This document shows, in pieces, positions 2,060-17,632 of a stretch of 64,000 nucleotides of DNA (position 1 is the stretch's first letter; each line of letters starts with the position of its first letter). The translations under genes and the position numbers were made by a program. The stretch lies in contig CAYGDG010000003.1 in NCBI GenBank assembly GCA_964348725.1, forward strand, positions 30,775-94,774, in the 5' to 3' direction. Below the pieces are notes generated by a model that saw only the letters and a program-made list of their open reading frames with translations, made no database searches and was not told the origin of the DNA. This DNA comes from an uncultured Candidatus Saccharibacteria bacterium. Its GTDB lineage: Bacteria > Patescibacteriota > Minisyncoccia > Phycocordibacterales > UBA9973.

Positions 2060-2527
2060 ATGAATAAAGCCGATATACAAAATTTGATCAAAGAATTGGT
2101 TGAGAAGACAAATGTCACTGTCCACGGACTGGATATTTCAGACGACAATTCCAAGATGACCTTGTTTTCCTTGGATGTGTCCGAGCCGCATCTTTTTACC
2201 GGGCGCGGCGGCGAAGCATTGTCAGCGCTCAATCACCTGGCCCGCAAGATTGCCGAGAAGAATGCTCCGGAGGGCGGCGAGAACGACGGCTTCCTGATAG
2301 ATATCGGCGGTTTTCAGAAACAGCGCATAGATTCTGTCCGCGCGATCGCTCATATGATGGCCGAGCGCGCCCGCTATTTTAAATCGAATGTGGAAGTGGA
2401 CCCGATGTCGGCTTTTGAGCGTCGCATCATTCACGAATTCCTTTCGGACGCGACCGACCTTAAGACCGAATCAATGGGCGAAGGTCCGTCCCGCCGAGTA
2501 GTCATCAGATATACCGGAGTAATATAA
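2060..2527 (+). CDS. jag: Jag/KhpB RNA-binding protein (KH + R3H domains)
   Basis: 155 aa; C-terminal R3H-like segment ERRIIHEFLSDATDLKTESMGEGPSRRVVIRY; conserved position after yidC. Confidence 0.75.
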   Translation: MNKADIQNLIKELVEKTNVTVHGLDISDDNSKMTLFSLDVSEPHLFTGRGGEALSALNHLARKIAEKNAPEGGENDGFLIDIGGFQKQRIDSVRAIAHMMAERARYFKSNVEVDPMSAFERRIIHEFLSDATDLKTESMGEGPSRRVVIRYTGVI

Positions 2528-2530
2528 AAA

Positions 2531-2553
2531 AACTCCCCACAGGGAGTTTTTTT
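2531..2553. terminator. Rho-independent terminator between jag (+) and T4SS-like operon end (-)
   Basis: AACTCCC-CACA-GGGAGTT hairpin flanked by A-run and T-run. Confidence 0.7.
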
Positions 2554-2568
2554 ATATTACAGATTTTT

Positions 2569-3945
2569 TTATAATGCGATCTCCCAGAGTTTGAAATCTT
2601 TCTTATTAATGAAGAAGAGATATTTCTCAGCTTCGTCGAGAGCGAGCTTGATGCCGTCCGCATCCTCGCCTGCCAGCGTGTAGACATCCGCGATCACAGT
2701 GTATGTGCCGGTCTTTACATCTATCTTCCAGATGCTATCGGAAAAAGATATTTCATCCCGGTACCAGGCGTCCGGATATTCATCATTCAGTACGAACTTC
2801 GGCACGGCGCAATAGAGCGTCTCGGAGAGCTTGCCCCAGACACATTTCTCCGGTAATGTCTTGGCCGGCAGAACTTGCGTGTTTCCGGTGCCTGTATCAT
2901 ATAAGTACAGAGTAAGGTCCCTGTTTCCATAGGCTATGAGGCGTCCGGACGGGCTGGTGAGCGTGGTCAGACCGGGTATTCCACCTAATATCTTATTGAA
3001 ATCTTTCAGGTTCGGGTCTATGCCGTACATATAGCCTGGCACGTTCGCGGAAGGCTTGGTGGTAAGTGTTACCATCCGACTGTTCGGCCACTCAGAGAGC
3101 CACTCAGTGAAAGGAGAATCGAAGAGCTGGATCCTCTTTTCTCCGGCAAGTCCTGCAGAAATGCCCACGGCATTTGTACCGGAAGAGAAGATGTAGAACA
3201 TGCGCGAGGTGTCCCGAGATATGGTCATGTCAGAGATGTTTTCTGGTAAAAAGATTCCCTTCAGAGAAGTGTTTGCCGAATCTGCACCAAGAACTTCCTT
3301 TGGCAGGATACCCGCAAATGTCTCGATGGTCCGTCCGTCTGTTTTCAGATAGCGGAAAATCACTGAATCGCCGTGATTGCCAAAAAATGCTTCATGGATC
3401 TGCGGGATGATAGTGGTGGTGAATTTGCGCTCATCCAGCTTATCAGCAAATGCCTGATAGATATTGCCAGTCGCTCTCTCGGCGTAACGCAGAGCAGGAA
3501 CGAATTCCGTCGGCGGAGCGATAGGTTTTACCACAGCAGCTTGAGAAGCGGTACCTGCGGCATCGGTAGAGGCAGGTTCGATGACCGGAATGATCACCGG
3601 CAGTTCCTTGAATCTTTCTTTCTGGAAGATGATGTATCCGGCGATCGATAGGTCGGAAACTTTTCTCAACTTGGCTGCCGGAGCTTCGGTCGCAGGGGCA
3701 GGTTCAAAGCCGGAAATGTCCGTCGGTTCGGTCGCAGTAGGCAGTTCGTTGTTCGTACCGCCAAAAGGCCATATTTGAGAAAGGAAATTTGTTCCGGCCG
3801 TGCTTCCCACAGTACCGGTCTTGTCAGTGGTATTATAAAAATATAAAAAGCCGAAAGCTATAGCCGTGGCGGCGATGAGGATGATAATAAGAAGTTTTAG
3901 ATTTCGTGGTGACATAATTATTTTCCGTCGTATGACCAGTGCCAA
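2569..3945 (-). CDS. Membrane-anchored protein with C-terminal beta-propeller-like region (last gene of T4SS-like operon); likely true start at Met 3915
   Basis: 458 aa ORF; N-terminal TM (LLIIILIAATAIAFGFLYF), low-complexity linker, repetitive beta-strand-rich C-terminus; alternative ATG at 3915 removes overlap with upstream gene. Confidence 0.5.
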   Translation of the reverse strand: MALVIRRKIIMSPRNLKLLIIILIAATAIAFGFLYFYNTTDKTGTVGSTAGTNFLSQIWPFGGTNNELPTATEPTDISGFEPAPATEAPAAKLRKVSDLSIAGYIIFQKERFKELPVIIPVIEPASTDAAGTASQAAVVKPIAPPTEFVPALRYAERATGNIYQAFADKLDERKFTTTIIPQIHEAFFGNHGDSVIFRYLKTDGRTIETFAGILPKEVLGADSANTSLKGIFLPENISDMTISRDTSRMFYIFSSGTNAVGISAGLAGEKRIQLFDSPFTEWLSEWPNSRMVTLTTKPSANVPGYMYGIDPNLKDFNKILGGIPGLTTLTSPSGRLIAYGNRDLTLYLYDTGTGNTQVLPAKTLPEKCVWGKLSETLYCAVPKFVLNDEYPDAWYRDEISFSDSIWKIDVKTGTYTVIADVYTLAGEDADGIKLALDEAEKYLFFINKKDFKLWEIAL

Positions 3946-5162
3946 GGCTCTGAAGCCAAATTATACATCTTATAAGTGGCCGCGTTATTTTTCAGCCAGA
4001 CGAAACATTTATTGTCTTGCGCCCCGATGCTCTGGCCTTCACAGGTGAAGTCGATGGCGAGGCCCGCTTCGTGCCTGGAAGTGCCGGGGTATGCGGTAGG
4101 CGGATTGCATTTCGCGCTCTGGTTATATATGGCAGATTGCCCGCCGCAGTGCTGGGATCGCAAGGATTCCTGCGCTTGCTTTGATCGGTATGTTCCGCCG
4201 GCCAGCTTGATCTGCGGTGTTGTCGCCCATGCCGCATCTATCAATTTTTTCAGGTTGGCCGAAATGCTCTTGCATGCCCAGAAGGTGCCTCCTGAAGTGC
4301 TGATCTGTTCGAATCCTTGAGTGCATAGTCCGTATGCTCCGCTCGGCGGCGTGCCGCTCGAGCTGGACGTCATACCGTAAATTTCACGTTCGTCCCCTAT
4401 CGTGACTGACGCTTCCGGTAGTTTGCCTAGGCCCACGTCGAGCAGGTCCGAATTCAAGGTGTTGAGGATGGCGTATGCGCCGAGAGCCAAGATGAGTCCG
4501 AGAACGGCATTCGTTATCTTGCTCTTCCCGTCCGCTTTTTCAGACACCAGCTCGCTGGTCATGTATTCTATGCCGCCTACCACTATCATGATCATGGCAA
4601 GGGCCGCGCAAATGCCTATGATCACATTTATCATGATGTTGAGGTATGCCCCGAAGCCGGACGCTGTATCCACCACTCCGTCTTTGCCGACTTTTGGAAT
4701 TGGCGCCAGCAATGTATAGTCCGTCTCGGTGTCTGTCCGTGTCACGTCACCGGAGAGTATGGTCGGGTTCGCTAACCCCCCCACCTTCTGCGCTATAGTT
4801 CCTGTTTTATCCTCCACGACTACTGATACACTGTATGTTTTTCCGGAATCCAGAATGCTGCCGGTATTATATTCGGCATGATTACCCTGTATTTTCTTAA
4901 TTACCGACTGCCCGACCTGTTTGTTCGGTTCCCCTTCTTTTTTTTCATATAAAAATACGACCGCATCTGTGTTGTCCGCTGTTCCTTCGGTGTCTATGTT
5001 CACTACCCAAGTCCACTTCTGGGTGGAAAAATTCTGATTCTGAGCGCCCATGGAAAGATTCACTTTTGTCGTAGCTGCGTTCACGGAAGCGGTAAGCGCT
5101 CCGAAAGCGACCAATACGGCCAGAGAAAAAATAACTATTTTTTTGTTCTTAAAAAGTGACAT
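3918..5162 (-). CDS. Fusion protein: secreted N-domain + VirB2/TrbC-like 2-TM hairpin + C-terminal peptidase M15 (D-Ala-D-Ala carboxypeptidase-like cell-wall hydrolase)
   Basis: Signal peptide; hydrophobic hairpin YLNIMINVIIGICAALAMIMIVVGGIEYM-loop-TNAVLGLILALGAYAILNTL; C-terminal SRHEAGLAIDF and EPWHWSY motifs typical of LAS/M15 metallopeptidases. Confidence 0.6.
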   Translation of the reverse strand: MSLFKNKKIVIFSLAVLVAFGALTASVNAATTKVNLSMGAQNQNFSTQKWTWVVNIDTEGTADNTDAVVFLYEKKEGEPNKQVGQSVIKKIQGNHAEYNTGSILDSGKTYSVSVVVEDKTGTIAQKVGGLANPTILSGDVTRTDTETDYTLLAPIPKVGKDGVVDTASGFGAYLNIMINVIIGICAALAMIMIVVGGIEYMTSELVSEKADGKSKITNAVLGLILALGAYAILNTLNSDLLDVGLGKLPEASVTIGDEREIYGMTSSSSGTPPSGAYGLCTQGFEQISTSGGTFWACKSISANLKKLIDAAWATTPQIKLAGGTYRSKQAQESLRSQHCGGQSAIYNQSAKCNPPTAYPGTSRHEAGLAIDFTCEGQSIGAQDNKCFVWLKNNAATYKMYNLASEPWHWSYDGK

Positions 5163-6117
5163 CGATCTGTTTTTCGCGATTTAAAAATAATCTTTTGAGA
5201 TTTTTGACCGTGAGGCGTATGCGGGCACTGCCTTCGCTGCCTGATTCCGGCTTTATTCCTATCTCGTTCTTCACATCGGAAGAAATGGGAGCTCCGTTCA
5301 GATACCAGGACATCTGAAGGTCCGGAGATTCCAGATCCTTCGGCGAAAAGAAATATGGTTCGGCACTGATTATGGCTCCTCCTTCGGGTATGAAAAATCC
5401 GTTCCCGATGGCGCGTGGCAGATGTTGTCCGGAAATAGGATCTTTGGCATAAAAAGTTATATGTGGTTCGGAGGGGCGGACCGTAGTCGTGCCCGTACCG
5501 ATGCCATTGCCTGCGAGGTCAGATACGGTGACATTGATCTCATTCTCAGTTTCCAAATAGGTATTCTTGAAAGTGTATGAGCTCTTGCCAAAACCGGAAA
5601 AAGTGACTGATGTCTTGCCGTCCTGCTCCCAGCGATAAGCGAAGTTCTTGGCGCTGCCGTTCGCCGGTATTGCCACTATCTTGTATGAGCCTTCGGTGGG
5701 AACAAGCGCTTTGCCTTTATAGAAAGGCGGCACATATGAGTCTACTCCTTGCCAGAGCAGATCTATGGCGGCCGGGCTGATGGCGATCGTCTTCTCGATG
5801 AGAGAGCCGTCCGCCGCTTCTATCCGTGCTTGGAGCAGTGTGCGTGACCCTGCGGCTGGGGCGGTAAAGGAAAAACTTTTCTGCCCGAATGCCTCTATCA
5901 TTACCCGTCCGTCGAGCAGCCACGTGATACGCGCGCGATCAAGATCGGAAGCGTATGTGGAGAGTGCTGCGGACACCGATTCGTTCGGCCGCGGATATCT
6001 CGGAGTGAGCGACAAAGAAACATCGCCGCTCTGTATCTGAGCCAAAGCGGAGAGTATAGGCAATGCGAAAAAAGCGATTGCGAGGACCACGACCGACATT
6101 TGTAACTTGGCGTACAT
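5149..6117 (-). CDS. Secreted/anchored protein, three beta-sandwich-like repeats (possible VirB8-position protein)
   Basis: 322 aa; N-terminal hydrophobic segment VVVLAIAFFALPILSALA; position downstream of VirB4 as in Gram-positive T4SS operons. Confidence 0.4.
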   Translation of the reverse strand: MYAKLQMSVVVLAIAFFALPILSALAQIQSGDVSLSLTPRYPRPNESVSAALSTYASDLDRARITWLLDGRVMIEAFGQKSFSFTAPAAGSRTLLQARIEAADGSLIEKTIAISPAAIDLLWQGVDSYVPPFYKGKALVPTEGSYKIVAIPANGSAKNFAYRWEQDGKTSVTFSGFGKSSYTFKNTYLETENEINVTVSDLAGNGIGTGTTTVRPSEPHITFYAKDPISGQHLPRAIGNGFFIPEGGAIISAEPYFFSPKDLESPDLQMSWYLNGAPISSDVKNEIGIKPESGSEGSARIRLTVKNLKRLFLNREKQIDVTF

Positions 6118-6138
6118 CGGCTATATTATATCACGCTC

Positions 6139-7980
6139 TTACCCTCGAGGCACAGTCTGGGCATCCGCTAATTCCTGCTTGGCCTTCTTGATGGAAAGGA
6201 TCTGCGAGGGGTCAGAGGTGATTATCTGATCTTCAGTGTATGAGGAAATGACTTTGATGGCGACGTGTTTCAGGCCGGCAAAGAATATGCCCTCTCCCAC
6301 GCCGGATTCCAGCAGGAGGTATTTCTCTTCATCGGTCAGATTAAATGTCTTTTGCAGGATGTCGATAGTAGATGGAGACTGCTTGAGGAGTATCTGGATG
6401 CTGGAGTTTGTAACGATCGGCACGCCGTACGGACTCTTCATGAAGTCAGCCGCGTCCTGAGTGATGGTGGCCAGGCCGAGGAAGTATTTGCGTCCGCGCT
6501 TGGCGATGGAGTACAAGAATGACGCAGTATCTTCTGATTTCATCATCCACCACGCTTCGTCCACCACAAGTAATCTTTTCTTCAGATTTTTTCTGACGGC
6601 ATTCCAGATGTAATGCGTGACGATGTACATGGCGATCGGCTTCAATTCATCTTCCATGTCGCGCACGGAGAAGACGACGAATTTCTTGTTGATATCGACG
6701 TTCGAGGGTTTGTTCAAGAATGTAGACCACGAGCCGCGCGTATATTTCACAAGACGCTGCACGACGGAGTCCGAACCTTCCATGCCGGAGAGCACCATCT
6801 CGAAGTCGGAAAGGAGTGGCGGTTCGATATTGGAAAAGTCAGATTCGGGCGTGATGTCTTTTATCGCATACGTTTCTGAAATGGCGCGGTCCACCATGGA
6901 GTCCTCTTCCGGCGTGAGCCCGCCGAGCATGAGACGGAACAGACCCACGAGGTTGATGATGTTCGAGCGGAGCACATCCGCTGCTGTTTCGTCTTCACGC
7001 GGGATCGGCAGGTCAAACGGATTAATGTGGTGTTCGGATGAGAGCGAAATATTGAAATAGCGTCCGCCGACGGCTTCAGCCAGGTATTCGTATTCTCGTT
7101 CCGGGTCGATGACGATGACGTCAGTGTCGAACATGAGCGAGCGTAGGATCTCGAGCTTCGTGGCATAGGATTTTCCGGAGCCGGATTTAGCGAAGGTGAC
7201 AGAGTTGTAGTTCTCCAGAGAGAAGCGGTCAAAAATAACAAGCGAAGAATTGTGCCGATTCACCCCATAGAGGATTCCTTTGTCGGACGTAAGGTCGAAA
7301 GAAACAAATGGAAAGATCGAAGAGAGTGGAGCAGAATTTAATTTCTGATGCACCGCAAGGACGTCGCTGCCGATCGGGATGACGCTCTTGAAACCTTCGT
7401 CCTGCTGGAATAGGGCCGGCTTTATGTATATGAGCTTTGATTCGAGCATGGATTTTATCTCATTCTCTATCTTGAAGAGCTCGAGCTCATTGTCGGCATA
7501 TACGGTGATGTACAGGCCCACATCGAACATTTTTTCCTGCGCTTGCATGAGGCTGTCGCGCAGGTTTTCGAGATCCTGATATGCCGTATCGAGCATCGGA
7601 TCGCGCACCATGCCCTTCCCTTCGCGTACGGCTATCTGGCTCTGCACCTCGGCTACTTTTTTCTGGAACTGGCGCAAGGCAAGCGAAGTGTCTATCGGGT
7701 GTATGAAGATCGAAACATCGAATATCTTATCGAGATTTATGATGGGCGAGAACCAATTGTCTGTCAAAAACCTCGGATACGAAATGATGAAGAATGTACG
7801 GGCTATCTTATCGCCGAGGTTCAAGGACTTTGGTTCGATCTTCAGAGCTGAAGGAGCGATGACATCCTGGAGCTCGAGCGTGGCGGATTCGTAGATTTCT
7901 TCCGGAAGCACGGCCAAGACGGACGCTCGCGCGTCGCTCTCTTTCGGTCTTCTTCCTAAAATTTTATCTAAAAGTGACAT
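6139..7980 (-). CDS. virB4: VirB4/TrbE/PrgJ-like T4SS ATPase, C-terminal ATPase part
   Basis: 613 aa; Walker A FAKSGSGKSYAT, Walker B RLLVVDEAWWMM (DEAW typical of VirB4), ATITQ motif. Confidence 0.8.
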   Translation of the reverse strand: MSLLDKILGRRPKESDARASVLAVLPEEIYESATLELQDVIAPSALKIEPKSLNLGDKIARTFFIISYPRFLTDNWFSPIINLDKIFDVSIFIHPIDTSLALRQFQKKVAEVQSQIAVREGKGMVRDPMLDTAYQDLENLRDSLMQAQEKMFDVGLYITVYADNELELFKIENEIKSMLESKLIYIKPALFQQDEGFKSVIPIGSDVLAVHQKLNSAPLSSIFPFVSFDLTSDKGILYGVNRHNSSLVIFDRFSLENYNSVTFAKSGSGKSYATKLEILRSLMFDTDVIVIDPEREYEYLAEAVGGRYFNISLSSEHHINPFDLPIPREDETAADVLRSNIINLVGLFRLMLGGLTPEEDSMVDRAISETYAIKDITPESDFSNIEPPLLSDFEMVLSGMEGSDSVVQRLVKYTRGSWSTFLNKPSNVDINKKFVVFSVRDMEDELKPIAMYIVTHYIWNAVRKNLKKRLLVVDEAWWMMKSEDTASFLYSIAKRGRKYFLGLATITQDAADFMKSPYGVPIVTNSSIQILLKQSPSTIDILQKTFNLTDEEKYLLLESGVGEGIFFAGLKHVAIKVISSYTEDQIITSDPSQILSIKKAKQELADAQTVPRG

Positions 7981-7986
7981 ATATTA

Positions 7987-8631
7987 TTACGCGTTCGTTA
8001 GGTCTATTTTACCTTCTATTTCTCCCGGATTGAAGACCTTGTAGAAAACTTCCACGATCTCTTCTGTGCCGAGCTCGACGGACTTGATGCCGGCGCTGGC
8101 CAGTCCCTGAGAGATGACCGCTACTCGCTGCTCGAGCTGCGAACGCTTCTCTTCGAAATCCGCGGCCGCGGCCGCTTTGACTTCTTCGCGGTTCTTGCGG
8201 GAAAATATTCCTTTCAGCATGCCGGTGTCGGCGGAAAATTCTTTCGGCGTATACGGCACGACCACGAAGAATGTCTTGGTCATGATATTTACCGTCTCGG
8301 TAAAATTCTTGATGAATTCCATATACTCGCGCGTCTGTACTTTCAGGAGTGGTTCATTCTGCACCTTCATCCTGTTCTCGAGAAGCAGCAAGTATGGCCG
8401 GATGTCGAGCTTCCTCGACTGCACGACTATCTGCACGGAGAAATCGAGCGTGTTCAGGAAGTTCTGGAACTGCATGATGGTGGCCTTCTGTTCATCTTCA
8501 GACTTGAGCGAAAGGTTCACTGAATTCGCGAGGACGACAGAGCGCAGCCCGCCGTCTTTCAAAACGACCACGCCGTCGCGGACTTCTTTGATAGGTACGA
8601 AATCTTGAGTTGCTCTCGCTTGTATGGCCAT
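7987..8631 (-). CDS. VirB4-like N-terminal domain protein (split from ATPase part by in-frame TAA TAA)
   Basis: 214 aa; DFVPIKEVRDGVVVLKDGGLRSVVL... resembles N-terminal domain of PrgJ/TcpF-type VirB4; same reading frame as 6139..7980, separated by TAA TAA TAT. Confidence 0.6.
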   Translation of the reverse strand: MAIQARATQDFVPIKEVRDGVVVLKDGGLRSVVLANSVNLSLKSEDEQKATIMQFQNFLNTLDFSVQIVVQSRKLDIRPYLLLLENRMKVQNEPLLKVQTREYMEFIKNFTETVNIMTKTFFVVVPYTPKEFSADTGMLKGIFSRKNREEVKAAAAADFEEKRSQLEQRVAVISQGLASAGIKSVELGTEEIVEVFYKVFNPGEIEGKIDLTNA

Positions 8632-8635
8632 AGTA

Positions 8636-9061
8636 TTATTCTACCTCATTTTGCGAATCTTTTTTCGTGTCCAGCACGTCCAAGCTCCAAGCCAGATCAC
8701 GCAATCGGCTCGCGCCCAGCTTTGGCGCGGGTATGGCACTTGCAAGAGAGGCCGCTTCTTTGGCTTTCTCACCTTTTTCTTTCCGTCTTCTCTTCCAGAT
8801 GTAGAGCTTGTCCGTGGCGGCGTAGCGGATGCTGGCCTCGAGCATATTTATGAATGGCTTATTGTTCGGACGGTAAAAAGTGAGCGCGAGCGAAAAGCCG
8901 GCAATAATGAGCATAGGAATCAATCCCCAGAAAAAGCCGAGCAGTTTATACAGGATGAAGCAAAGCCCTCCGCCGCCGGCGAGATAGACGAATTGGCGGA
9001 AAGTGAACGGGCCGAAGATCTTATCTTCGATGTCGATGAATTGTGGCACTTTGAATTGCAT
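8636..9061 (-). CDS. PrgI/VirB3-like small 2-TM protein
   Basis: 141 aa; two TM helices (LAGGGGLCFILYKLLGFFWGLIPMLIIAGFSLALTFY) then basic tail; sits immediately upstream of VirB4 as prgI-prgJ. Confidence 0.5.
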   Translation of the reverse strand: MQFKVPQFIDIEDKIFGPFTFRQFVYLAGGGGLCFILYKLLGFFWGLIPMLIIAGFSLALTFYRPNNKPFINMLEASIRYAATDKLYIWKRRRKEKGEKAKEAASLASAIPAPKLGASRLRDLAWSLDVLDTKKDSQNEVE

Positions 9062-9064
9062 ATT

Positions 9065-9835
9065 TTATTGCGGTATTTCTCGATACGGGTCTATTTGTGG
9101 TGCCGGGACGGGAGCTACGGCAGGTGCCTGCGGGCTGACAGAAACCGGCGTCTTGGAAATATTGCTCAAGGAATACTCTGTCTTTACCGTCGGCAGTTGG
9201 AAAGAGCCGGAGAGCTTCGAAATCGGTATGGAAGAGACCGAAGAAAGAATTTTTTCATTTTGTTTTGGCGTGCTTATTGTCTCGGGATGTTCCACTTTTG
9301 TCAGCATGTCTTCACGTTTTTCCATCGGAGCCGCTGCAGATATTTGAGGGGGGAGAACGGGAGATGGGGTAATATTGATGCCGACGGATTTCAATACGTC
9401 TGTCTCAGCTGTTTTCAGATCGGGTCTTGGTATTGTCGCCGCCGCCGGGCGGACAGATGGAATCGGCTCTTCTCTCACCTGAATTTTCTTCTTTTCCGTG
9501 AGCTTCATCAGTTCTTGGCGGATCTTCTTGAAAACGAGCTCGTTCATTTCATTTACCAGCTCGTCAGCCTTGGCACGCGGAATTTTCATTCGAGCCGAAA
9601 GTTCCGCCGGAAAATTTTCCGGTGACAGCAAGCCGCACAGCAATAATTCAGTTTCCACGCCGAGGTCTTCGATCTGTTCGAAGCTGAAGCCCTTTTTCTC
9701 ACGCATCGAGAGGACGATGCCGCGCCAATCTACCGCTTGTATCGCGTCGCGTGTAGCCTCTGGTAAAGCGGCTTTCGCCTTATCTATTTTTATCTGTAGA
9801 AGGTCAAGTTCTGCCATCTTTCTATTATATAACAA
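9065..9835 (-). CDS. Hypothetical protein, paralog A (shared ~90-aa N-domain with next gene, Pro/Ser-rich C-terminus)
   Basis: 256 aa; N-domain LPEATRDAIQAVDWRGIVL...ELVNEMNELVFKKIRQEL aligns with N-domain of 9825..10319 product. Confidence 0.45.
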   Translation of the reverse strand: MLYNRKMAELDLLQIKIDKAKAALPEATRDAIQAVDWRGIVLSMREKKGFSFEQIEDLGVETELLLCGLLSPENFPAELSARMKIPRAKADELVNEMNELVFKKIRQELMKLTEKKKIQVREEPIPSVRPAAATIPRPDLKTAETDVLKSVGINITPSPVLPPQISAAAPMEKREDMLTKVEHPETISTPKQNEKILSSVSSIPISKLSGSFQLPTVKTEYSLSNISKTPVSVSPQAPAVAPVPAPQIDPYREIPQ

Positions 9836-10319
9836 ATTTACTTTTTATGTCTTCTATTTTTGAAGGCGGCACGATGGCTCGTATGGTGTCCGTGAAATCT
9901 TTCGAGACCACGTGTTTTTTCATGAGTACGCCATAGTCTCCGCCGGAGAGGATGAAATCGAGCGATTCGCGCCATGTCCACTCCTTGGCGACTGAATTAT
10001 TTTTTATCGTCTCTCGAATTTTATTCGCGATAGGGACGAATACTTGCGCAAGAAGTTCCTGTGCCACTATCTCCGCTTGGTTTCTCGGGATCCCCACTTC
10101 GTCTTCTATATTCATGGCAATATCCTGCGGATATGCGAGGCCGGTCATTACCAGCACCGTTTCTATTGCCAAGTTATCAATATCTTGTTCCAGTAGACCG
10201 TGAGAATTTCCGACGGCAGTTATTTGTGCGAGCCAGTCAAAAGAATGTACCGCGTCCAAAGACTCCTTTGGTAAGGTCTTGAGCTGTTCGTTGATTTTAT
10301 TTTTTAATTCTTCAGTCAT
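9825..10319 (-). CDS. Hypothetical protein, paralog B
   Basis: 164 aa; LPKESLDAVHSFDWLAQITAV...EIVAQELLAQVFVPIANKIRETI homologous to paralog A; 11-nt overlap with it. Confidence 0.45.
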   Translation of the reverse strand: MTEELKNKINEQLKTLPKESLDAVHSFDWLAQITAVGNSHGLLEQDIDNLAIETVLVMTGLAYPQDIAMNIEDEVGIPRNQAEIVAQELLAQVFVPIANKIRETIKNNSVAKEWTWRESLDFILSGGDYGVLMKKHVVSKDFTDTIRAIVPPSKIEDIKSKFVI

Positions 10320-10324: not shown

Positions 10325-12709
10325 TTAGTGATCAGGCGCATGTGCTCCTGCGGGTGCCGGAGCGTGGGCTTCGGCCGGTGCGGCGTGCCCATGATCCCCG
10401 TGGTCATCATCTCCCCCGTGATCTCCATGACCATCCTTCGGCGGCTTCATACCCATCCTGATGTTGTGTGACGCGTTGCGGTCTGAGCTTGCGCTGCCGC
10501 CAGTCATGACACTGATAGTTTGGTGAAGTCCACTGCCCACTCTGTCTGCCTCTTTATCTCTTCTATTGTAGTTCTTGAGCTCGATCGCATGTTCGGCGTG
10601 GTGGACAGACTCTTCCATGTCTTTCAGTGTGTTATCTCCTGACTTATATTCTTTAGCTGAGTAATTTTTGTCGACAGTAATGATATTTCCATCTATATCC
10701 TGATATTCATCTTTGAACGCCTGACCAGTCTTCAGTGCATCTTTCTGTTTCTTGAATACTTTGAGCTGGTCTCCGTATACCGCCAATGCGTCTCTCTTCT
10801 TAGCTTTATCCTCGTCAGTCAGATTCGGCATCAGGTTTGCATCCTTCAGGTTCTGTCGAGCTGCCTCGAGCTGCTTGTCGATTTTCGCCACTTCCGTATT
10901 AGTAGTCATCTGCAAGGCACGTAGATCGGTCTGCAGCTTGTTCAATTCCTGCTTCTCTTTTTCATTATCGCCGACTTCCAAATCCTTTGCTCTCTTCAGG
11001 CGCTTTGCTTCCTGGCGTTCTTTCATGCCGGCAAAGCCTCCTTGCGCCGGCTTGCCTACGCCTTTTACTAGGCCGGTGCCGCGGACATCAAATGAAGCAG
11101 CCCCGAGCGCTCCGCCTGCACCCTGTAATCCTCGTATTGCCCAACCATAGTATTTATTGCTGGACAGATCTTTCAGCTTGCCGCTGTCCGCGGCCATCTG
11201 GCCGAGTCTTCCGATGGTGGAGCGCCCCGCGAGAGCATATGCGCCGAGCGCGCCGCCGACGGCGAGTCCTGCCACGCCGCTGCCGATTTTTGACATTGCC
11301 GCGCCGATCTCACCAGACATTTTCTGGGCTATTTCTTTTGCCTTGGTAAGAAGGATAAAGATGATGGCGAATGGGATGATAGTCTTCATGAATTTATCCA
11401 TGTAATCAGTCGAATTGCCGATGTCGTATGTGATGAGGCTGAAGAAATCTCCGAACAGGATGATGACATACAGGAAGAAGATGAAGACAGGCGCGAGGAA
11501 TGCGTTCTTGAGTAGATTGCTCAGCCACTCTTCCCAGCCGAAACCCGGAATGTGCACGTGAGGCAAAGTTTTGGAAGCGAAAGCGATTGGCGCGAATATC
11601 ATGGAAAGCCACAGGGCGACCACTCGGCCGACAAAGAGCATGGCGACCGAGAAGAATATATATGCCATGAATGCCATGATGGCGGAAGACAGCAAAGTGA
11701 CGAAAATGAACAGCCCGATATTGCCGGCATAGTTATCCTGGGTGATGACGTTCTGAGGGTTGAAAGGTTTGGTGAGTCCGAGGGAGATGGATTTTTCACC
11801 CGCCGAGTTAGCCGGGAGCGGATTTCCATTGCTGTCGACGGCTTTGATGTTGTTGTAAAAAACTTTCGCCAATATGTTCGAGCCGTCTATCAGTACCTGG
11901 GTGAAGAACAGGCTGAAGTTTATGAGCAGCGCCACGATGATGATGGAGCTGATGGCTTTCTTTGCCCCGTGCCCAAGGTTCAGAATGGTCTGTATCGCTA
12001 TATATAGAAGAGATACGATAAAGAATATGTTGGCGATGTCGCGCACTGCTCCCCATGCCTTGCGGATGAATTCGCTCGAATATGAACTGCTGTTCGTGGA
12101 ATAATAGACAAAGAAGTCGAGTATTTTGGCGGCCAGTCTGGCGAATGCGGCCAAAGGTTCCCAGAATATGGTGTAAACTATGGCAGCCAAACAGCCCTTT
12201 ACTCCTTCAATACTGAGCTTACACTCAAAGCTGTAACCGTCCGACGGAATATTCGATGGCATGCTGGTGCCTTCTGCGGCAGCTTGGAATCCTGTATCCG
12301 TCTGTTGCGACCCTGATCCGTCGCCGTTAAAATTTACTGCATTGGATATCGTATTCGAGGGATTAGTGCTCGCGAGGATTCTGTATTTTTTGCTCGCTTG
12401 AAAATTGTATTCTACGAGTAAGCTAACTGTCTGTTCAGTGCCGGCATCGCTCACCTGCGATGTAAAATTGGTATGCTTTACGGAATTGACGAGCCCGGCT
12501 TCATCATATTGGAGAAGATTCAGATCAAACGCGTCTCCCGCTTTTGGACCCAAAATTTTTATTTTGAAAGTTCCGGAATTCGGCGTGATGTCAGCAGGTT
12601 GTATCGGCTGTATTTCCAGAGCGGTGACCGCGTGTGCTGTCCCGATCGGCGCTATGAAAATGCCGAGCGCGATCACCGATATCAAAATGTATGAAAAAAG
12701 CCTTTTCAT
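10325..12709 (-). CDS. VirB6/TrbL-like polytopic membrane protein with N-terminal secreted domain, C-terminal coiled coil and His/Asp-rich tail
   Basis: 794 aa; signal peptide, ~7 TM helices, Gly-rich GSGVAGLAVGGALGAYALAGRSTIGRLG segment typical of TrbL/VirB6, tail HGDHGGDDDHGDHGHAAPAEAHAPAPAGAHAPDH. Confidence 0.5.
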   Translation of the reverse strand: MKRLFSYILISVIALGIFIAPIGTAHAVTALEIQPIQPADITPNSGTFKIKILGPKAGDAFDLNLLQYDEAGLVNSVKHTNFTSQVSDAGTEQTVSLLVEYNFQASKKYRILASTNPSNTISNAVNFNGDGSGSQQTDTGFQAAAEGTSMPSNIPSDGYSFECKLSIEGVKGCLAAIVYTIFWEPLAAFARLAAKILDFFVYYSTNSSSYSSEFIRKAWGAVRDIANIFFIVSLLYIAIQTILNLGHGAKKAISSIIIVALLINFSLFFTQVLIDGSNILAKVFYNNIKAVDSNGNPLPANSAGEKSISLGLTKPFNPQNVITQDNYAGNIGLFIFVTLLSSAIMAFMAYIFFSVAMLFVGRVVALWLSMIFAPIAFASKTLPHVHIPGFGWEEWLSNLLKNAFLAPVFIFFLYVIILFGDFFSLITYDIGNSTDYMDKFMKTIIPFAIIFILLTKAKEIAQKMSGEIGAAMSKIGSGVAGLAVGGALGAYALAGRSTIGRLGQMAADSGKLKDLSSNKYYGWAIRGLQGAGGALGAASFDVRGTGLVKGVGKPAQGGFAGMKERQEAKRLKRAKDLEVGDNEKEKQELNKLQTDLRALQMTTNTEVAKIDKQLEAARQNLKDANLMPNLTDEDKAKKRDALAVYGDQLKVFKKQKDALKTGQAFKDEYQDIDGNIITVDKNYSAKEYKSGDNTLKDMEESVHHAEHAIELKNYNRRDKEADRVGSGLHQTISVMTGGSASSDRNASHNIRMGMKPPKDGHGDHGGDDDHGDHGHAAPAEAHAPAPAGAHAPDH

Positions 12710-12739: not shown

Positions 12740-14149
12740 CTATCTTTTGGTGAAATAATACTCGTAACCGTATGCGTTGCGTGTGGTGGAAGTCATCGTC
12801 TGAATGCTTATGATCCTGCTGTAATAATACTCATATACAGTAAGGCGGCCATTCAAGAATGCCAATTGATATGCCGCCACATCCGGCTCGGAGACGCGTA
12901 TTTCTCTGCCCGCGGTATTTATATAGCCGAAGCTGCGCGCATAAAAGTGCGCAAGTGTCCAAGCAAAAGTCTGCAGGTCTTGCCGCCCGTCCCAACCATA
13001 CGCGCGCGCCAAGGCTTCGTTCCCAGCTATTTGTCTCTGAAATACAGTCTCGATTCCTTCGTGGTAGCGGACTACTGCATCTATCGGCGGAATAACATTT
13101 TGTCCCAAGACGAACGGGCCGTTGGGATTCAAATTTCCATTACTTCCGTTATTCCCATTGTTTCCATTGTTCTGATTATTCCCATTTCCTCCCGACGTAG
13201 TATTTCCGCCGCCGTTATTGTTCACTCCCCCGCCTCCGCCATCATTTACTCCGCCGCCATCATTATTTACCGGAGTATCTCCACCCCCACCGATACCTCC
13301 GCCGACATATGTGCCTCCGCCGCCTGTGCCGTTGCAATTTTCATCGTCATCATCACCGCATGGAGCCTGGTACGGCTGTCCGCCGGGCGTTCCTCCGGGA
13401 TTCGTATTTCCCGGTGAAGCGGTAGTGAAGGACAGAACACCTCCGTAATACGTAGTGCCTCCGCTTGCCGCCGCCGCGCGGAATTCATATTGCGTGCCGG
13501 AAGTGAGACTATTGATGAGCGATACCATGTCTCCCGCGCCCGAGCTATGGCTTACGATTGAAGTTTTTTTCCAAGGCTCGCTGATATCGATTAGTAGCCC
13601 CCCAGCAGTCTCCGTCACTGGATTTATTTTTCTGTATTCGAACCACGTCGTCGAGACAGAAGTGGAATTGTAAGAACCGTTCACATACGAAGAGTCAGCG
13701 TCCACCACCAGGGCATCTTCGGTGATGACGGAAGTAGCGAAACAAGAGGCGCATGGAGTGGTGACGAATTCTTTCACATTGCCATAACGTATCTCGGTCC
13801 TACTGGAAGCGATGGCGCAGTAATAATATTTGGTGTTCGGCTCGAGCCCGGTGATTTTTTTAGAGAAGGAGGTGGTGCCGCCAGATCCGATATTCGTCTC
13901 TTTGGTATATTTCATGTCCGAACCGAAAACGTCATTACAGAACACGGGTGGGATATCGAGGGTCGCATAACGGAAATATCCGGAGCTCGGAAATCCTTCC
14001 GGATTAGCGGACCCGGAGAGAATGACCGAATTTTCCGTAATGGATGCAGCATTTCCGGTCAGGACGGAATTTATCGCCAGCGCCGAAAAGGGCATCCAGA
14101 GCAGGGCTGACATCGCTATTATATTTTTTATATTTTTTTGCATCTTCAA
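12740..14149 (-). CDS. Secreted protein: two FN3-like repeats, Gly/Asn-rich low-complexity linker, C-terminal GWDG-motif domain
   Basis: 469 aa; signal peptide; linker GGGGTYVGGGIGGGGDTPVNNDGGGVNDGGGGGVNNNGGGNTTSGGNGNNQNNGNNGNNGSNGN; C-terminal ALARAYGWDGRQDLQTFA. Confidence 0.5.
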   Translation of the reverse strand: MKMQKNIKNIIAMSALLWMPFSALAINSVLTGNAASITENSVILSGSANPEGFPSSGYFRYATLDIPPVFCNDVFGSDMKYTKETNIGSGGTTSFSKKITGLEPNTKYYYCAIASSRTEIRYGNVKEFVTTPCASCFATSVITEDALVVDADSSYVNGSYNSTSVSTTWFEYRKINPVTETAGGLLIDISEPWKKTSIVSHSSGAGDMVSLINSLTSGTQYEFRAAAASGGTTYYGGVLSFTTASPGNTNPGGTPGGQPYQAPCGDDDDENCNGTGGGGTYVGGGIGGGGDTPVNNDGGGVNDGGGGGVNNNGGGNTTSGGNGNNQNNGNNGNNGSNGNLNPNGPFVLGQNVIPPIDAVVRYHEGIETVFQRQIAGNEALARAYGWDGRQDLQTFAWTLAHFYARSFGYINTAGREIRVSEPDVAAYQLAFLNGRLTVYEYYYSRIISIQTMTSTTRNAYGYEYYFTKR

Positions 14150-16711
14150 TTAATATATTTGCAGCGTCCTTTCGAACACGCCGATCGTCTGCGAAGTCTT
14201 GTCTTGCTGCAGGTTAAAGAGATCGCTGACTCGCACATAAGTCGGGCCGCGGGGATTGCCTAAGCTGCCGCATTCTGCCGTATTTGCCAGGCCGAACTGC
14301 TCGTAGAAAGAGCAGAAGCTGGTGATGCTTGAAAGGTTTGCCAATGTCGGGATGGTGAAGACGGTAAATGAACTGGCTGAGAGGAATCCGGGGCCGCCTC
14401 CATTCGCTATGGCCGGCATGTTGTTCGTAATGCCCGCATTAAGCGGATCAGGAATTGCCGCTCCTGCAGCCAAGGTGTTGTAATCATACAATATGTCAAA
14501 AGGATAAGCTGGACGCTTGGTGTCGAGTATCTGCCATGGAGTATTACCAAGGTCATTTTCGCAGCCGGCCGCACCTTTCAGTAGGTCCTTGTAAACGTAA
14601 TTGGTTTTGTCGATTATTTCTCTCCACATGATATCTGCCGCGGCAATGTCATTGCCGGAGACCATGTCTATAGAGAGGCGGCCGAAAGCGCTGGTCCATG
14701 GCTGGAGCGCATTTTCATATGCGTCCTGTGAGAGTGAGCCGGAAGCGAGCTGGCTGTTGAGCGCATCAATTTTGTTCTTGATATTGATAAGTCGCTGCAC
14801 AATGCTTTTTTTGACTGCAATATTTGTCTTGTTGTCTTCGATTATCTTTTTATATCCCTCGGCTCGTAGGAATTCCGCTTCCGCTTCGCTGGCCACTCCC
14901 GGCTGGATGTCGCGGATGAATGTACTATTTACTGCAGTCACATATCGGTCAAATATCTTATCCAATTTTTCAACAACGCTTGAATAAGGAAGCAAGTTGT
15001 CGTCTCGTACTACAGCCAGGCCGGTAATGAGGCCGACGTATGCGGCGTAGAGTTTTTTAGAGTCATTCTCTCCGTCACCTATGCCGAGGGCGACACCTAT
15101 TTGATTTATCGGTCCACCAAATGCACCGGCCAGCTGGTGTACAGTATCCGGTGGAATAGTATCCACGTCCGGTATCTTGCTTTCGGCGGTTTCCAGAGCG
15201 ATCTGCGCTTCTTCTTCCCAATCCGGATGCGGACCAGGGATACAGTAGTCGAGCTGGTAGACTGTTTTAATGAGGTTCGGCAATGCCGCATTCTGCTGTT
15301 CAAGCTTGTCTATATATGTACGCTGCGTGTCTATCACCGCTTGGGAAAAGTCCGTACGGATATTGAAATCCGGATTATCCCGGAGCCAGGAACTTGCATT
15401 CAGCGCGGAGTCGGCAAAATCTTTTTCAGTTTGCCATTTGTCCGAGTCGCTTATGCCGAGCGAATCAAGCGAGAGTCTGTTGTCATTTTCAGTCAATGCG
15501 GCAAGGCCTTCGTTGGTCAGCTGAGCGGTGAATTTTGCGAGTAAGGCGTCAAGCACTGCGGCGATGGCGTCATTCAGATCTTGTGCTTCGAGCAAGGCGT
15601 CCTTTGGATAACCCACGGCATCTGTGGCCAAGCTGGCCACGATGGAGCCTGGTGTTACACTCTCCCATCTTTTACAGAGGCGAGGCGAGCCGGTCGGATA
15701 CATGTTCGAGCTACCGGCGAGAGCCGCATCGTGTTCTTCTTTGGTGACTCCTATCGGATCCGCGCAACGAGAATCTGGCAGCCATCCGCCCGCTGATTGC
15801 AGGCCTTTGTCGATCCATTGTGCGGTAGACATCTCTGTGCCGGCCAACCTGCCACTTAGTTCATTTGAAGCCAAGAGATTGAAACCAAGGGGATTGTTTG
15901 CTGGTATGATGGTCATCGCATTCCACGCTCCCCAGCCCCCTTGCGAAAAATCTTCACTGAAAGCAGCAGCGGTGTATTGCGGCGTAGTGTCGCGGATCAG
16001 CTTGTCTAAAGAAAACTGCGCGTTCTGGGCGAAGTGATTGTTGAAAGCATTGGCTTGTGCATAGAGGAATGCGCGGCCGAAAGGAAACTTATTCGCATCA
16101 TTTATCTCGAGCCCGAAGCCGAGGATCTCTTCTTTTGCGATATCACGGAAATATTTAGTGGATTGGACAAAGAATGACTGACCATTATTTCCGTTCCTGA
16201 TCCATTCTATGGTCGCCAAAGTTATTTTTTGCAGCAGCAATTTTATGACCATGCGGCCGATGGCTTCGGTGCAGGTAATTTTCTTCTTGATGGACTCGGT
16301 ATTTGTGTCGATATTGTCTATAGTTTGTCCTTGTTTTATTACTGCCGTATAGGTGGCCTCATCATGCACTCCGATATCGTCTACTGTGGCGGAACTCTCG
16401 GCAGATTTGCCGGAAAAACTGCCGTCTTCTAATCGAGGACCGATCTCTTTTTTGGCTTTCCTGAACAAGCCCTTTATCCCGCTGCCTATGGCCTTCTGGC
16501 ATTCCGGAAGCTTGGCGATAGTGGGCAAAAGACCTTTTACGTAGCCGTTGATATTTCCGCCGGAACTGGATCCGGTGGCACCGGAAGTGCCGGTCGAATT
16601 GCTACCGAAGACGCCGAATGTCTGAGCACTTACCAAGACAGGCGAAAGCAATATGCCCGCAAGCGTGAATATGACGACTATATTTTTAAAAATTATATTT
16701 GCTTTGCTCAT
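14150..16711 (-). CDS. Large secreted protein of unknown function
   Basis: 853 aa; N-terminal signal peptide IVVIFTLAGILLSPVLVSAQ; stop/start adjacent to neighbours. Confidence 0.5.
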   Translation of the reverse strand: MSKANIIFKNIVVIFTLAGILLSPVLVSAQTFGVFGSNSTGTSGATGSSSGGNINGYVKGLLPTIAKLPECQKAIGSGIKGLFRKAKKEIGPRLEDGSFSGKSAESSATVDDIGVHDEATYTAVIKQGQTIDNIDTNTESIKKKITCTEAIGRMVIKLLLQKITLATIEWIRNGNNGQSFFVQSTKYFRDIAKEEILGFGLEINDANKFPFGRAFLYAQANAFNNHFAQNAQFSLDKLIRDTTPQYTAAAFSEDFSQGGWGAWNAMTIIPANNPLGFNLLASNELSGRLAGTEMSTAQWIDKGLQSAGGWLPDSRCADPIGVTKEEHDAALAGSSNMYPTGSPRLCKRWESVTPGSIVASLATDAVGYPKDALLEAQDLNDAIAAVLDALLAKFTAQLTNEGLAALTENDNRLSLDSLGISDSDKWQTEKDFADSALNASSWLRDNPDFNIRTDFSQAVIDTQRTYIDKLEQQNAALPNLIKTVYQLDYCIPGPHPDWEEEAQIALETAESKIPDVDTIPPDTVHQLAGAFGGPINQIGVALGIGDGENDSKKLYAAYVGLITGLAVVRDDNLLPYSSVVEKLDKIFDRYVTAVNSTFIRDIQPGVASEAEAEFLRAEGYKKIIEDNKTNIAVKKSIVQRLINIKNKIDALNSQLASGSLSQDAYENALQPWTSAFGRLSIDMVSGNDIAAADIMWREIIDKTNYVYKDLLKGAAGCENDLGNTPWQILDTKRPAYPFDILYDYNTLAAGAAIPDPLNAGITNNMPAIANGGGPGFLSASSFTVFTIPTLANLSSITSFCSFYEQFGLANTAECGSLGNPRGPTYVRVSDLFNLQQDKTSQTIGVFERTLQIY

Positions 16712-16723
16712 TTTGCTTTATTT

Positions 16724-17632
16724 TTACTCGGTTATTATACCATTATTTTCCAATATTGCCTGAAGCTCGCGTGCCGCTTTGATGAGGTCATCACTGTATT
16801 TTTGGTATTGCGAGAGTCCGGAGAGGCCGATGATCGGGTCCGTCACCATTTTTTCCATGTTCCGCACCGCGACGCCGGTATTATTCGCGTCATTCATGAT
16901 CTTCAGATGATGCGATACGAGGCTGGATGGCACAGACATCTCGGACATCTTGGAAGCAAATTCTTGGTATGCGTCCGCGATCCCGCTCAAGCGGCTTTCA
17001 GAATTTGTTTCGCCTGTAGAAGAATAAGTAGTAATGTCACCGCTCACCGCTTCGAGCTCGTCGCCGATACCGGCCTCGGCATACTTTTCAAAAAGACCTT
17101 GCAATGTATCATAGTATTTAGCTTGTGCTTGTACCCCGGTCTCTTCCGAGAGTTTGACGTTATTTGAAGTGTAGCGATCAAGGAGCGAAGGATCGGCTAT
17201 TTTCTCGCCGATCGAACCATAGAGATTGTTTATGGTCTTTTCATCGAACTGCCCATTCTGCTTCAAAGCTACAAAGGAAGTGAAAAATTCCTGAGCGAAT
17301 TTTTCCGTCTCTGTACCTTCCATACCAGCCGTGTCTCCGGCCGGCAGAGCTTCTCGCCTTTTCCTGATATATGAGCTGTCTGGTTCGCCGTCGAATGTGA
17401 CGGCCTTGTTCACGTCTGTTCCCCACAGCCCTTCTTCCCAATCCATCACGCCGTCGCCGTCAGTATCTTTCTGCCAAAGATCATTGAGCGTCACTTTTTC
17501 CGCCCGCAATTTCTTTTCCGATATGAATCGGCTGGCGGTGGAGAAACGGGAAATAAGGAAAACGCCGGCAATGACAGCGATGCCTATTCCCATCCATATC
17601 GTGAATTTTTTGCTTGGCAGATATTTATTCAT
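16724..17632 (-). CDS. N-terminally anchored membrane protein (first gene of operon), contains DxDxDG Ca-binding-like motif
   Basis: 302 aa; TM WMGIGIAVIAGVFLISRF; DTDGDGVMDWEEGLWGTD. Confidence 0.5.
   Translation of the reverse strand: MNKYLPSKKFTIWMGIGIAVIAGVFLISRFSTASRFISEKKLRAEKVTLNDLWQKDTDGDGVMDWEEGLWGTDVNKAVTFDGEPDSSYIRKRREALPAGDTAGMEGTETEKFAQEFFTSFVALKQNGQFDEKTINNLYGSIGEKIADPSLLDRYTSNNVKLSEETGVQAQAKYYDTLQGLFEKYAEAGIGDELEAVSGDITTYSSTGETNSESRLSGIADAYQEFASKMSEMSVPSSLVSHHLKIMNDANNTGVAVRNMEKMVTDPIIGLSGLSQYQKYSDDLIKAARELQAILENNGIITE

Follow-up and report, generated by a model that had tools for sequence, protein, structure and literature searches.

A VirB2-type pilin hairpin joined to an exchangeable, predicted peptidoglycan-active domain in a type IV secretion operon of Patescibacteria

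The 64-kb stretch of DNA analysed here (the window), from an ultra-small, Paceibacteria-type member of the Patescibacteria, contains a type IV secretion system (T4SS) operon in which a single gene, called here the hairpin gene, encodes a VirB2-type pilin hairpin and a predicted zinc peptidase within one protein. This protein is the sole VirB2-family subunit detected in the operon, and we consider it probable, though by no means assured, that it is a subunit of the secretion machine which supplies the wall-cutting (VirB1-like) function that the operon otherwise lacks. In related operons the same hairpin occupies the same position and is followed by any of several peptidoglycan-active domains. 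The most economical reading is that the enzyme is an exchangeable module, accessory to a functional hairpin subunit.

The hairpin gene begins with ATG, and its 414-residue product consists of five parts (Table 1): a signal peptide, a FN3/Ig-like beta-sandwich, a two-helix hairpin, a linker and a peptidase domain. A sequence-only reading of this DNA had proposed a secreted N-terminal domain, a pilin-type pair of hydrophobic helices with a short charged loop, and a C-terminus of the LAS/M15 peptidase type, all three of which were recovered; the peptides that it named lie at residues 181-236 (hairpin), 362-371 (SRHEAGLAID) and 405-408 (EPWH). Hydropathy analysis revealed three hydrophobic segments (hydropathy windows starting at residues 3-14, 167-188 and 214-220), and in an AlphaFold2 model built with an alignment of 60 homologues as input (mean pLDDT 85.9) a signal helix (residues 7-22) precedes a beta-sandwich (33-126); a disordered stretch (131-143) then leads to two long helices (169-202 and 206-236), which a low-confidence linker connects to a compact domain at the C-terminus. 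Both approaches thus place a signal peptide ahead of a true hairpin, not a simple signal-anchor, and a VanY match covers the C-terminus. The signal peptide (MSLFKNKKIVIFSLAVLVAFGALTASVNA followed by ATT) has a lysine-rich n-region and a VNA-A motif and looks cleavable, with a putative cleavage site. The layout of a signal peptide followed by two hydrophobic helices with a short charged loop is that of VirB2, yet the protein is not a small hairpin-only pilin, having approximately 120 residues before the hairpin module and 170 after it. Based on hydropathy, the AlphaFold2 model and analogy with VirB2, the N-terminal domain and the enzyme are both predicted to be extracytoplasmic, because the signal peptide would be cleaved and the helices would adopt the VirB2 topology. 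The conserved cysteines of the enzyme domain (C280, C297, C339, C352, C374 and C386) fit this placement.

Sequence comparisons support the membership of the hairpin in the pilin family. The earlier reading had suggested a Pfam search for TrbC/VirB2 and Peptidase_M15; T4SS_pilin (PF18895; residues 179-235, E 1.6e-6, 28.5 bits versus a cut-off of 26.6) and VanY were found above their cut-offs, whereas TrbC/VirB2 (PF04956) matched below its own (E 0.023, 15.3 bits versus 27.9). Across the 60 homologues, T4SS_pilin was matched in 56 and TrbC/VirB2 in 18 (E <0.01, best 1.1e-6), and the hairpin protein also has a weak NCBIfam match to the Mbov_0395 pilin-like conjugal transfer protein. The module comprises a Y-x-LLAP-x-P motif, helix 1, a short charged loop in which K209 is invariant, helix 2 and an N-(P/S)-x-LL motif, and its consensus reads Y-x-LLAPLP ... 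YLN ... IG-x-CAVLAVIMIV-x-GGIEYMTSEL-x-S-x-KE-x-GK ... AILGLLLALGAY-x-ILNTINP-x-LL. Conservation among the homologues peaks in two regions, the hairpin module and the enzyme domain, and by this measure the hairpin is conserved far beyond the needs of a mere anchor. A family hairpin profile compared with the sequences of the Protein Data Bank (PDB) gave no match even at E 10, and thus no sequence-level tie to solved pilus structures. When the family hairpin hidden Markov model (HMM) was run against all six-frame open reading frames (ORFs) of the window, a single hairpin ORF was recovered, and neither this model nor Pfam analysis of ten further ORFs, nine of them with hydrophobic segments, revealed a second pilin, although a very divergent one might escape because the family model is narrow.

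The C-terminal domain is predicted to be an active LAS zinc peptidase of the M15B/VanY type, because its motifs, its invariant residues and its structural matches agree. The Pfam VanY model (PF02557) matched residues 298-413 (E 2.1e-12, 47.4 bits versus a cut-off of 25) and was found in all 60 aligned homologues. The C-terminus aligns by sequence with VanY-type D-Ala-D-Ala carboxypeptidase structures through R/Q, S-x-H-x-x-G-x-A-x-D and E-x-x-H motifs; H364, D371 and H408 are the proposed zinc ligands and E405 the proposed catalytic residue, with R326 and Q331 noted alongside them, and these six residues and S362 are invariant across the homologues. Structure comparison identified an LAS fold, the best matches being VanYB (11.4), BaLdcB (10.9), VanXYc (10.5) and VanXYg (10.4), followed by the phage L-Ala-D-Glu endopeptidase Ply500 (9.9) and the phage endolysin LysB4 (9.5). 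The protein is not an equivalog of vanY, vanXY or LdcB, since its NCBIfam scores are far under the cut-offs (vanXY, 22.6 versus 250 bits; vanY_BG, 19.3 versus 400; LdcB, 17.7 versus 275). Its sequence is compatible with end-trimming as well as with internal cutting of the stem peptide. Pfam analysis of the 414-residue protein found M15B as its only wall-degrading domain, with no lytic transglycosylase of the VirB1/TrsG/CD419 type and no CHAP or NlpC domain. Upstream of the hairpin, the N-terminal domain is a generic adhesin-type FN3/Ig sandwich by profile and structure comparison, which varies in length and type among homologues (fn3, TIG, Big_1 and Pur_ac_phosph_N). The linker between hairpin and enzyme is modelled with low confidence (blocks of residues 241-260 average pLDDT 64 and 53, and residues 251-255 fall below 50), and a conserved L-x-x-LP-x-A motif at its start is the point at which related genes switch to other C-terminal domains.

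The sequence-only reading had called the fusion an unusual arrangement; instead, it proved to be widespread. Whole-protein database searches returned at least 360 matches, and among those listed, VanY was found in 120 of 120, a precomputed T4SS_pilin match in about half, and every source name giving a taxon was of the Patescibacteria; public annotations of these homologues read either 'VirB2 pilin' or 'D-Ala-D-Ala carboxypeptidase'. We assembled 63 loci, 60 from a scan of species-representative genomes with a single-sequence query and 3 from look-ups of the exact protein, and the family hairpin profile identified exactly one hairpin ORF in each (E 1e-29 to 1e-42). The gene occupies a fixed slot in the common order VirB4 - g322 - hairpin gene - g458 (genes named g plus a number are the conserved operon genes listed in Table 1), VirB4 being present in 61 loci, g322 in 62, g458 in 60, g256 in 47, g164 in 39 and g794 in 43, with many loci ending before g794 is reached. 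In those 60 loci g458 adjoins the hairpin gene whichever enzyme domain the latter carries. The sequence after the hairpin was clustered and one representative per cluster scanned with Pfam, which divided the 63 loci into VanY (13), NlpC/P60, also matching Amidase_5 (12), SLT_2 (6), an unclassified group with invariant H/D/H-x-H residues (6), YkuD (5), lysozyme-like SLT_3 (4), short Cys-rich tails (4), Peptidase_M15_4 (3), singletons (8, among them L054, which has a tail of only 50 residues) and tails of fewer than 40 residues (2: L045, and L038, which is cut by a contig end).

In an independent sample, the family hairpin profile was searched against 1.84 billion representative proteins and matched 35,964 at E <=1e-3, 10,975 at 1e-10 and 447 at 1e-30. 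This exhaustive search replaced a hairpin-only search of a word-indexed protein database, which had returned only 2 short stand-alone pilins and missed the query itself. T4SS_pilin was matched in 116 of the top 120 single-hairpin representatives, and their further domains were VanY (17), NlpC/P60 (7), SLT_2 (7), YkuD (6), M15_4 (5), Amidase_5 (4), SLT_3 (4), and Amidase_2, SLT, SLT_4 and CHAP (1 each). A domain-sized tail of 150-249 residues was present in 90 of 121 single-hairpin representatives, and every tail domain that could be recognised belongs to a peptidoglycan-active family, while no cell-wall-binding module was seen by Pfam in the 60 homologues or the 120 representatives. Tail-less short forms also occur (L045, L054, P0121 and P0122).

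Several of the tails deserve separate mention. The unclassified group (L021, L023, L046, L050, L059 and L062) has a C-terminal domain of approximately 160 residues with invariant E, H, H, D and H-W-H and several cysteines, a pattern that suggests a metallopeptidase; this 'DHWHV' class was considered as a further LAS peptidase, with negative results by profile against the PDB and by hhalign against the VanY family, and no Pfam match. Loci L030-L033 have the short Cys-rich tail (57-111 residues) after the same hairpin, and L013, L019, L057 and L063 have singleton tails, those of L019 and L057 showing E-S / G-x-FQI lysozyme-like motifs by eye. In the protein sample, P0123-P0132, P0135, P0140, P0142, P0143, P0154 and P0159 contain tandem VirB2-like hairpins in one predicted protein (17 matched stretches in the 1775 residues of P0123; 4 each in P0125 and P0130), which may be fused pilin arrays or artefacts of gene calling or genetic code. 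One locus, L040 (JAMPXW010000001.1, a contig of 276,871 bp), comes from a metagenome-assembled genome titled 'Burkholderiales bacterium' but carries a complete Paceibacteria-type T4SS operon with a hairpin-SLT_2 gene, and this genome is probably mis-binned or mislabelled.

Comparison of close relatives indicates that the domains have been exchanged recently, as cassettes, by recombination. In a neighbour-joining tree of VirB4 the enzyme classes are thoroughly intermixed. The DNA of locus L004 (VanY) is 93.4% identical to that of L022 (YkuD) up to nt 8322 and 94% identical from nt 8820, and the stretch in between, which cannot be aligned, coincides exactly with the C-terminal domain encoded by the hairpin gene (7671-8804), with identity returning at the start of g458. 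Between L009 (VanY) and L016 (NlpC/P60), the flanks are 85-87% and the hairpin 84% identical, and the N-terminal and C-terminal domains are both unalignable. In both pairs protein identity continues through the hairpin to N-P-x-LL ... L-x-x-(I/L)P-x-A and then ends. For L004 and L022, VirB4, TrsD, PrgI, g322 and g458 are 96-100% identical in amino acids, with synonymous divergence (dS) of 0.15-0.25 and a nonsynonymous-to-synonymous ratio (dN/dS) of 0.01-0.10; the hairpin is 97% identical (dS 0.32, dN/dS 0.05), and the N-terminal domain is 52% identical (dS 1.08, dN/dS 0.38). Because its dS is far above that of its neighbours, the N-terminal domain was imported from a divergent allele and is not merely fast-evolving. 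Judged from these alignments, the hairpin gene is a mosaic, in which a constant pilin core lies between two recombining exposed modules. No immunity gene was found that varies with the cassette, the downstream g458 belonging to the same family in 60 of the 63 loci. Likewise, neither orphan cassettes nor immunity genes turned up in the enlarged locus L006, where the extra genes were AAA ATPases and a toxin-antitoxin pair. The insertions there (L006:2273-3418 and 4663-6503; two AAA-type ATPase genes and, by eye, a RelE/DinJ-like pair) flank the hairpin gene and interrupt the otherwise tight g322 - hairpin - g458 arrangement.

We propose that the hairpin protein would be exported by the Sec pathway and its signal peptide removed, after which the two helices would form a membrane hairpin, with the lysine-containing loop in the cytoplasm and the Ig-like N-terminal domain and the enzyme outside the cell. 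The hairpin would then engage a VirB4/VirB3/VirB6-like machine, either as a membrane-proximal channel subunit or upon extraction into a short stalk or pilus, and the tethered VanY/M15B zinc peptidase would cleave the stem peptides of peptidoglycan where the machine is located, presumably with the producer's own wall as its primary target. The outcome would be a VirB1-like opening of the wall, which monoderm secretion systems need and for which the operon otherwise offers no candidate, Pfam having revealed no wall-hydrolase domain in the eleven other operon proteins scanned. Such a role fits the published remark that VirB1 is missing from the majority of patescibacterial genomes with VirB2 (PMC12102498), as well as the presence in Southlakia of an essential LAS-domain gene directly downstream of VirB4. 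The sequence-only reading had suggested an envelope-breaching component tethered within the channel, a placement that is hypothetical. The comparisons made here show the domain identities, the conservation, the place of the gene in the operon and the exchange of cassettes, whereas topology, docking to the machine, catalytic activity, bond specificity and the wall targeted are inferred. Several observations weigh against a VirB1-like role. The YkuD variants are nominally transpeptidases, a poor fit to wall cutting, and neither they nor VanY/LdcB-type enzymes are obvious hole-makers; and the fast swapping of both flanking domains between near-identical operons is commoner in proteins exposed to another organism than in assembly factors with a housekeeping role. 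Finally, because some orthologues are nearly without a C-terminal tail (e.g. L045 and L054), the enzyme would seem to be dispensable for the role of the hairpin itself.

Since recombination replaces both exposed ends even among very close relatives, the protein is a likely point of contact with the outside world, and the speed of this replacement resembles selection at an interface with another organism. The hairpin protein might instead form a VirB2-like polymer, a pilus or stalk, aimed at a host or prey to which the bacterium attaches, each subunit displaying an Ig-like adhesin and a lysin against the wall of that cell, so that cassette exchange would track host wall chemistry or surface variation. 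We regard such a filament as a serious alternative, but clearly less probable than a VirB1-like subunit. Its appeal lies in the detection of only one VirB2 homologue in the operon, in the combination of a conserved core with hypervariable exposed ends that is expected of filament subunits, in the replacement of both N- and C-terminal domains between operons of 85-94% DNA identity, in the dS of the L004/L022 N-terminal domain (1.08 versus 0.15-0.32 in neighbouring genes) and in the invariant lysine of the loop; in conjugative-pilus structures a basic loop residue binds lipid in the lumen. Furthermore, the domain set equals the phage lysin repertoire (PMC5017753), and Southlakia requires both its pilins and its secretion system in order to grow epibiotically (PMC10633639). 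Conversely, the approximately 300 extra residues per subunit would be unprecedented among VirB2-type pilins, and a cell-wall-binding module was not seen in the homologues and representatives scanned. Some cultured Paceibacteria parasitise archaea without peptidoglycan (PMC10936435), and the enzyme would endanger the exposed wall of the producer itself, although no immunity gene was found to change with the cassette. In its fullest form, a polymer of the sole VirB2 homologue, each subunit bearing an exchangeable lysin and an equally exchangeable Ig-like adhesin, would clear the producer's wall during its growth and then, on touching the host, breach the wall of the latter, a proposal that we advance with considerable doubt. 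If true, it would describe a self-drilling filament tuned to host wall chemistry by recombinational cassette swapping; it would be the first T4SS pilin to bear an enzyme and would give ultra-small episymbionts a concrete means of opening their hosts.

The exchange of a C-terminal enzyme between close relatives, at a fixed point behind a constant N-terminal part, is also the hallmark of polymorphic toxins, and NlpC/P60, lysozyme-like and YkuD-type wall-targeting domains are known types of antibacterial effector of the type VI secretion system. The hairpin and N-terminal region might accordingly constitute a trafficking module, from which the enzyme would be cleaved near N-P-x-LL / LP-x-A and released or delivered to kill competitors or hosts. 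We think this unlikely, because the partner that defines such a system, a downstream immunity gene that changes with the toxin domain, is absent: in 60 of the 63 loci g458 stays within one family. Nor did any orphan cassette appear, the L006 insertions being only ATPase and toxin-antitoxin genes, and the cleavage motif at the junction is putative. Far less probable still is an ordinary membrane-anchored carboxypeptidase of wall maturation (LdcB/DacB- or VanY-like), whose pilin likeness and position would be incidental. Public annotations do read 'D-alanyl-D-alanine carboxypeptidase family protein', and the best structural matches are VanYB and LdcB. A housekeeping carboxypeptidase is nevertheless contradicted by the domain swaps and the synteny, since the gene keeps its position, with reading frames overlapping, beside secretion genes in more than 60 loci, its hairpin matches pilin models in 56 of 60 homologues, the same slot may hold SLT, NlpC/P60 or YkuD, which could not replace a specific carboxypeptidase step, and the NCBIfam vanY and LdcB models score 17-23 bits versus cut-offs of 250-400. 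A prophage lysis module resembling a holin or SAR-endolysin was rejected as well, given that the hairpin matches pilin models, that the secretion operon is conserved and chromosomal, and that there are no phage genes nearby.

The operon consists of co-directional, partly overlapping genes in the order g794, g164, g256, PrgI/VirB3, TrsD, VirB4, g322, hairpin gene and g458 (Table 1), so that the hairpin gene lies among the type IV secretion genes VirB4, TrsD and PrgI/VirB3. The first 14 nt of the hairpin gene coincide with the end of g322, and its last 28 nt with the start of g458. Counterparts of the TrsD-like gene in loci L002 and L003 have precomputed Pfam matches to TraC-like families. By position and topology, g794 is a candidate VirB6 analogue; its C-terminus is of low complexity and rich in His, Asp, Gly, Ala and Pro, and between L004 and L022 it has diverged more than any other conserved gene of the operon (86% amino acid identity, dN/dS 0.29, versus <=0.12 for the others).

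Table 1. Parts of the hairpin protein and neighbouring features of the operon (window coordinates)
Feature	Position	Strand	Residues or length	Basis and remarks
Hairpin gene, whole ORF	3918..5162	-	414 aa	ATG start
Signal peptide	5076..5162	-	aa 1-29	Hydrophobic segment and modelled helix 7-22
Variable, predicted extracytoplasmic FN3/Ig-like beta-sandwich and disordered linker	4719..5075	-	Sandwich aa 33-126; linker to aa 148
Conserved VirB2/T4SS_pilin-type module	4437..4718	-	aa 149-242	Pfam, conservation, model
Low-confidence linker	4338..4436	-	aa 243-275	pLDDT and junction alignments
VanY/M15B (LAS) zinc peptidase domain, predicted	3921..4337	-	aa 276-414
Terminator-like hairpin between convergent jag and g458	2519..2560	.		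19-bp stem
g458, downstream gene	2569..3945	-	458 aa	N-terminal transmembrane segment; no family match (Pfam, NCBIfam)
g322, upstream secreted protein	5149..6117	-	322 aa	Weak Ig-like matches (Pfam)
VirB4-type secretion ATPase	6139..7980	-	613 aa	Pfam TraG P-loop E 8e-25, AAA_10, DUF87
TrsD-like, resembling N-terminal part of VirB4	7987..8631	-	214 aa	NCBIfam TrsD and VirB4 N-terminal region models
PrgI/VirB3-like	8636..9061	-	141 aa	Pfam PrgI E 8e-10
g256, conserved	9065-9835	-		No family match (Pfam, NCBIfam)
g164, conserved	9825-10319	-		No family match (Pfam, NCBIfam)
g794, polytopic membrane protein	10325..12709	-		About 7 hydrophobic segments (hydropathy); no Pfam match

The terminator-like hairpin, a strong one, probably marks the 3′ end of the operon. 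Beyond it lie jag, yidC, yidD and rnpA, and ksgA is located at 18056-18883; the operon is a chromosomal, origin-proximal Patescibacteria T4SS, beside rnpA/yidC. The other large ORFs of the window that were scanned and gave family matches are chromosomal, unrelated to secretion and mostly housekeeping, and neither a coupling protein nor a relaxase turned up among the window ORFs scanned. Upstream of g794, at 12740-17632 (minus strand), are three co-directional genes without clear family matches, for proteins of 469, 853 and 302 residues, the first having weak fn3/Pur_ac_phosph_N matches and the other two each having a hydrophobic segment at the N-terminus; their conservation among related loci is sporadic, and they may encode variable surface proteins of the same operon. 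Just past the secretion operon, an IS200/Y1-transposase-like ORF (18867-19526, minus strand, 219 residues) overlaps the start of ksgA. Elsewhere on the minus strand of the window are genes for a secreted YkuD-domain protein (25503-26855, 450 residues) and a secreted LysM and Peptidase_M23 protein (36037-37101, 354 residues), both wall enzymes separate from the hairpin gene; the organism clearly maintains peptidoglycan. The same strand encodes a Fic-domain protein (30471-31421), a XerC/D-type tyrosine recombinase (39845-40813) and a DUF2975 membrane protein (50777-51702) with a small paralogous fragment adjoining.

Much of this setting is already known, namely the secretion system, VirB2-like pilins and an LAS peptidase next to virB4 in Saccharibacteria (PMC10633639, PMC12102498). 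The T4SS of Patescibacteria, described by Wang et al. 2023 (PMC10633639) and Quinonero-Coronel et al. 2025 (PMC12102498), is of the Gram-positive type, with VirB2-like pilins near virB4, widespread TrsD and PrgI, and a location near dnaA, rnpA and ksgA, and it usually lacks both a relaxase and a VirB1 homologue (PMC10633639, PMC12102498). According to the 2025 survey, a VirB1-type hydrolase is missing from most of the genomes that have VirB2-like pilins, and the means of wall crossing was left open (PMC12102498). In Southlakia, SEML1_0007 is essential, lies directly downstream of VirB4 and ends in a Hedgehog/DD-peptidase (LAS) domain, and SEML1_0006 has lysozyme-like and cysteine-protease domains (PMC10633639 Table S2). 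The families found in the hairpin tails are also tabulated as phage endolysin domains (PMC5017753). We found no description of the pilin-hydrolase fusion, its fixed operon slot or the exchange of cassettes, and no reference to VanY or to a carboxypeptidase in connection with this system, in the literature searched (main texts and supplements), which is not proof that these are unpublished. On comparative evidence, the modular pilin-enzyme build appears to be the new element. Patescibacteria represent a large share of uncultured bacterial diversity, and in the one species examined so far their T4SS proved essential; in the Paceibacteria-type operon, the question of wall crossing would be answered directly, by a hydrolase built onto the pilin. 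The family, which should be of interest to specialists in T4SS and in Patescibacteria, also provides a natural catalogue of lysin domains on one common scaffold.

Compared with known VirB2/TrbC and T4SS_pilin pilins, the hairpin protein is alike in its signal peptide, two helices, charged loop and PF18895 match, and in its VirB4/VirB3 operon near the origin. The pilins of Southlakia epibionticum (SEML1_0014-0019) are small, about 125-185 residues, and often arrayed (PMC10633639), whereas here one gene of 414 codons adds an Ig-like domain and an enzyme; for those pilins and for the VirB2-like pilins surveyed across Patescibacteria (PMC12102498), as for this one, polymerisation is putative. The VirB1-type hydrolases of monoderm systems (PrgK of pCF10, TraG of pIP501, TcpG of pCW3 and CD419; PMC12102498, PMC4027160) are likewise membrane-tethered and encoded in Gram-positive-type operons, and sister genes of the same slot carry the classical SLT, NlpC/P60 or CHAP domains, but those hydrolases have a single transmembrane tether in place of a VirB2-like hairpin with an M15B/LAS domain. 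SEML1_0007 and SEML1_0006 of Southlakia are similar in being wall-active proteins directly downstream of virB4, both essential for epibiotic growth, and the former shares the LAS superfamily; as compared by domain and position, SEML1_0007 differs in its length of 1113 residues and its separation from the pilin genes, with no hairpin fusion reported. In contrast to VanY/VanXY, LdcB, Ply500 and LysB4, none of which is its equivalog, the hairpin enzyme has extra conserved cysteines and is fused to a pilin hairpin. Polymorphic toxin systems such as Rhs, CdiA-CT and LXG have a constant N-terminal part and an exchanged C-terminal enzymatic cassette, which the hairpin gene resembles except that it has no cassette-linked immunity gene, and we know of no described role for a T4SS pilin module as a carrier of such toxins. 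Flagellinolysin-type flagellins have a conserved helical core for polymerisation and, exposed at the surface, a domain that varies and is in some cases an enzyme; although they belong to a different filament family, they offer an analogy to an enzyme-bearing filament subunit.

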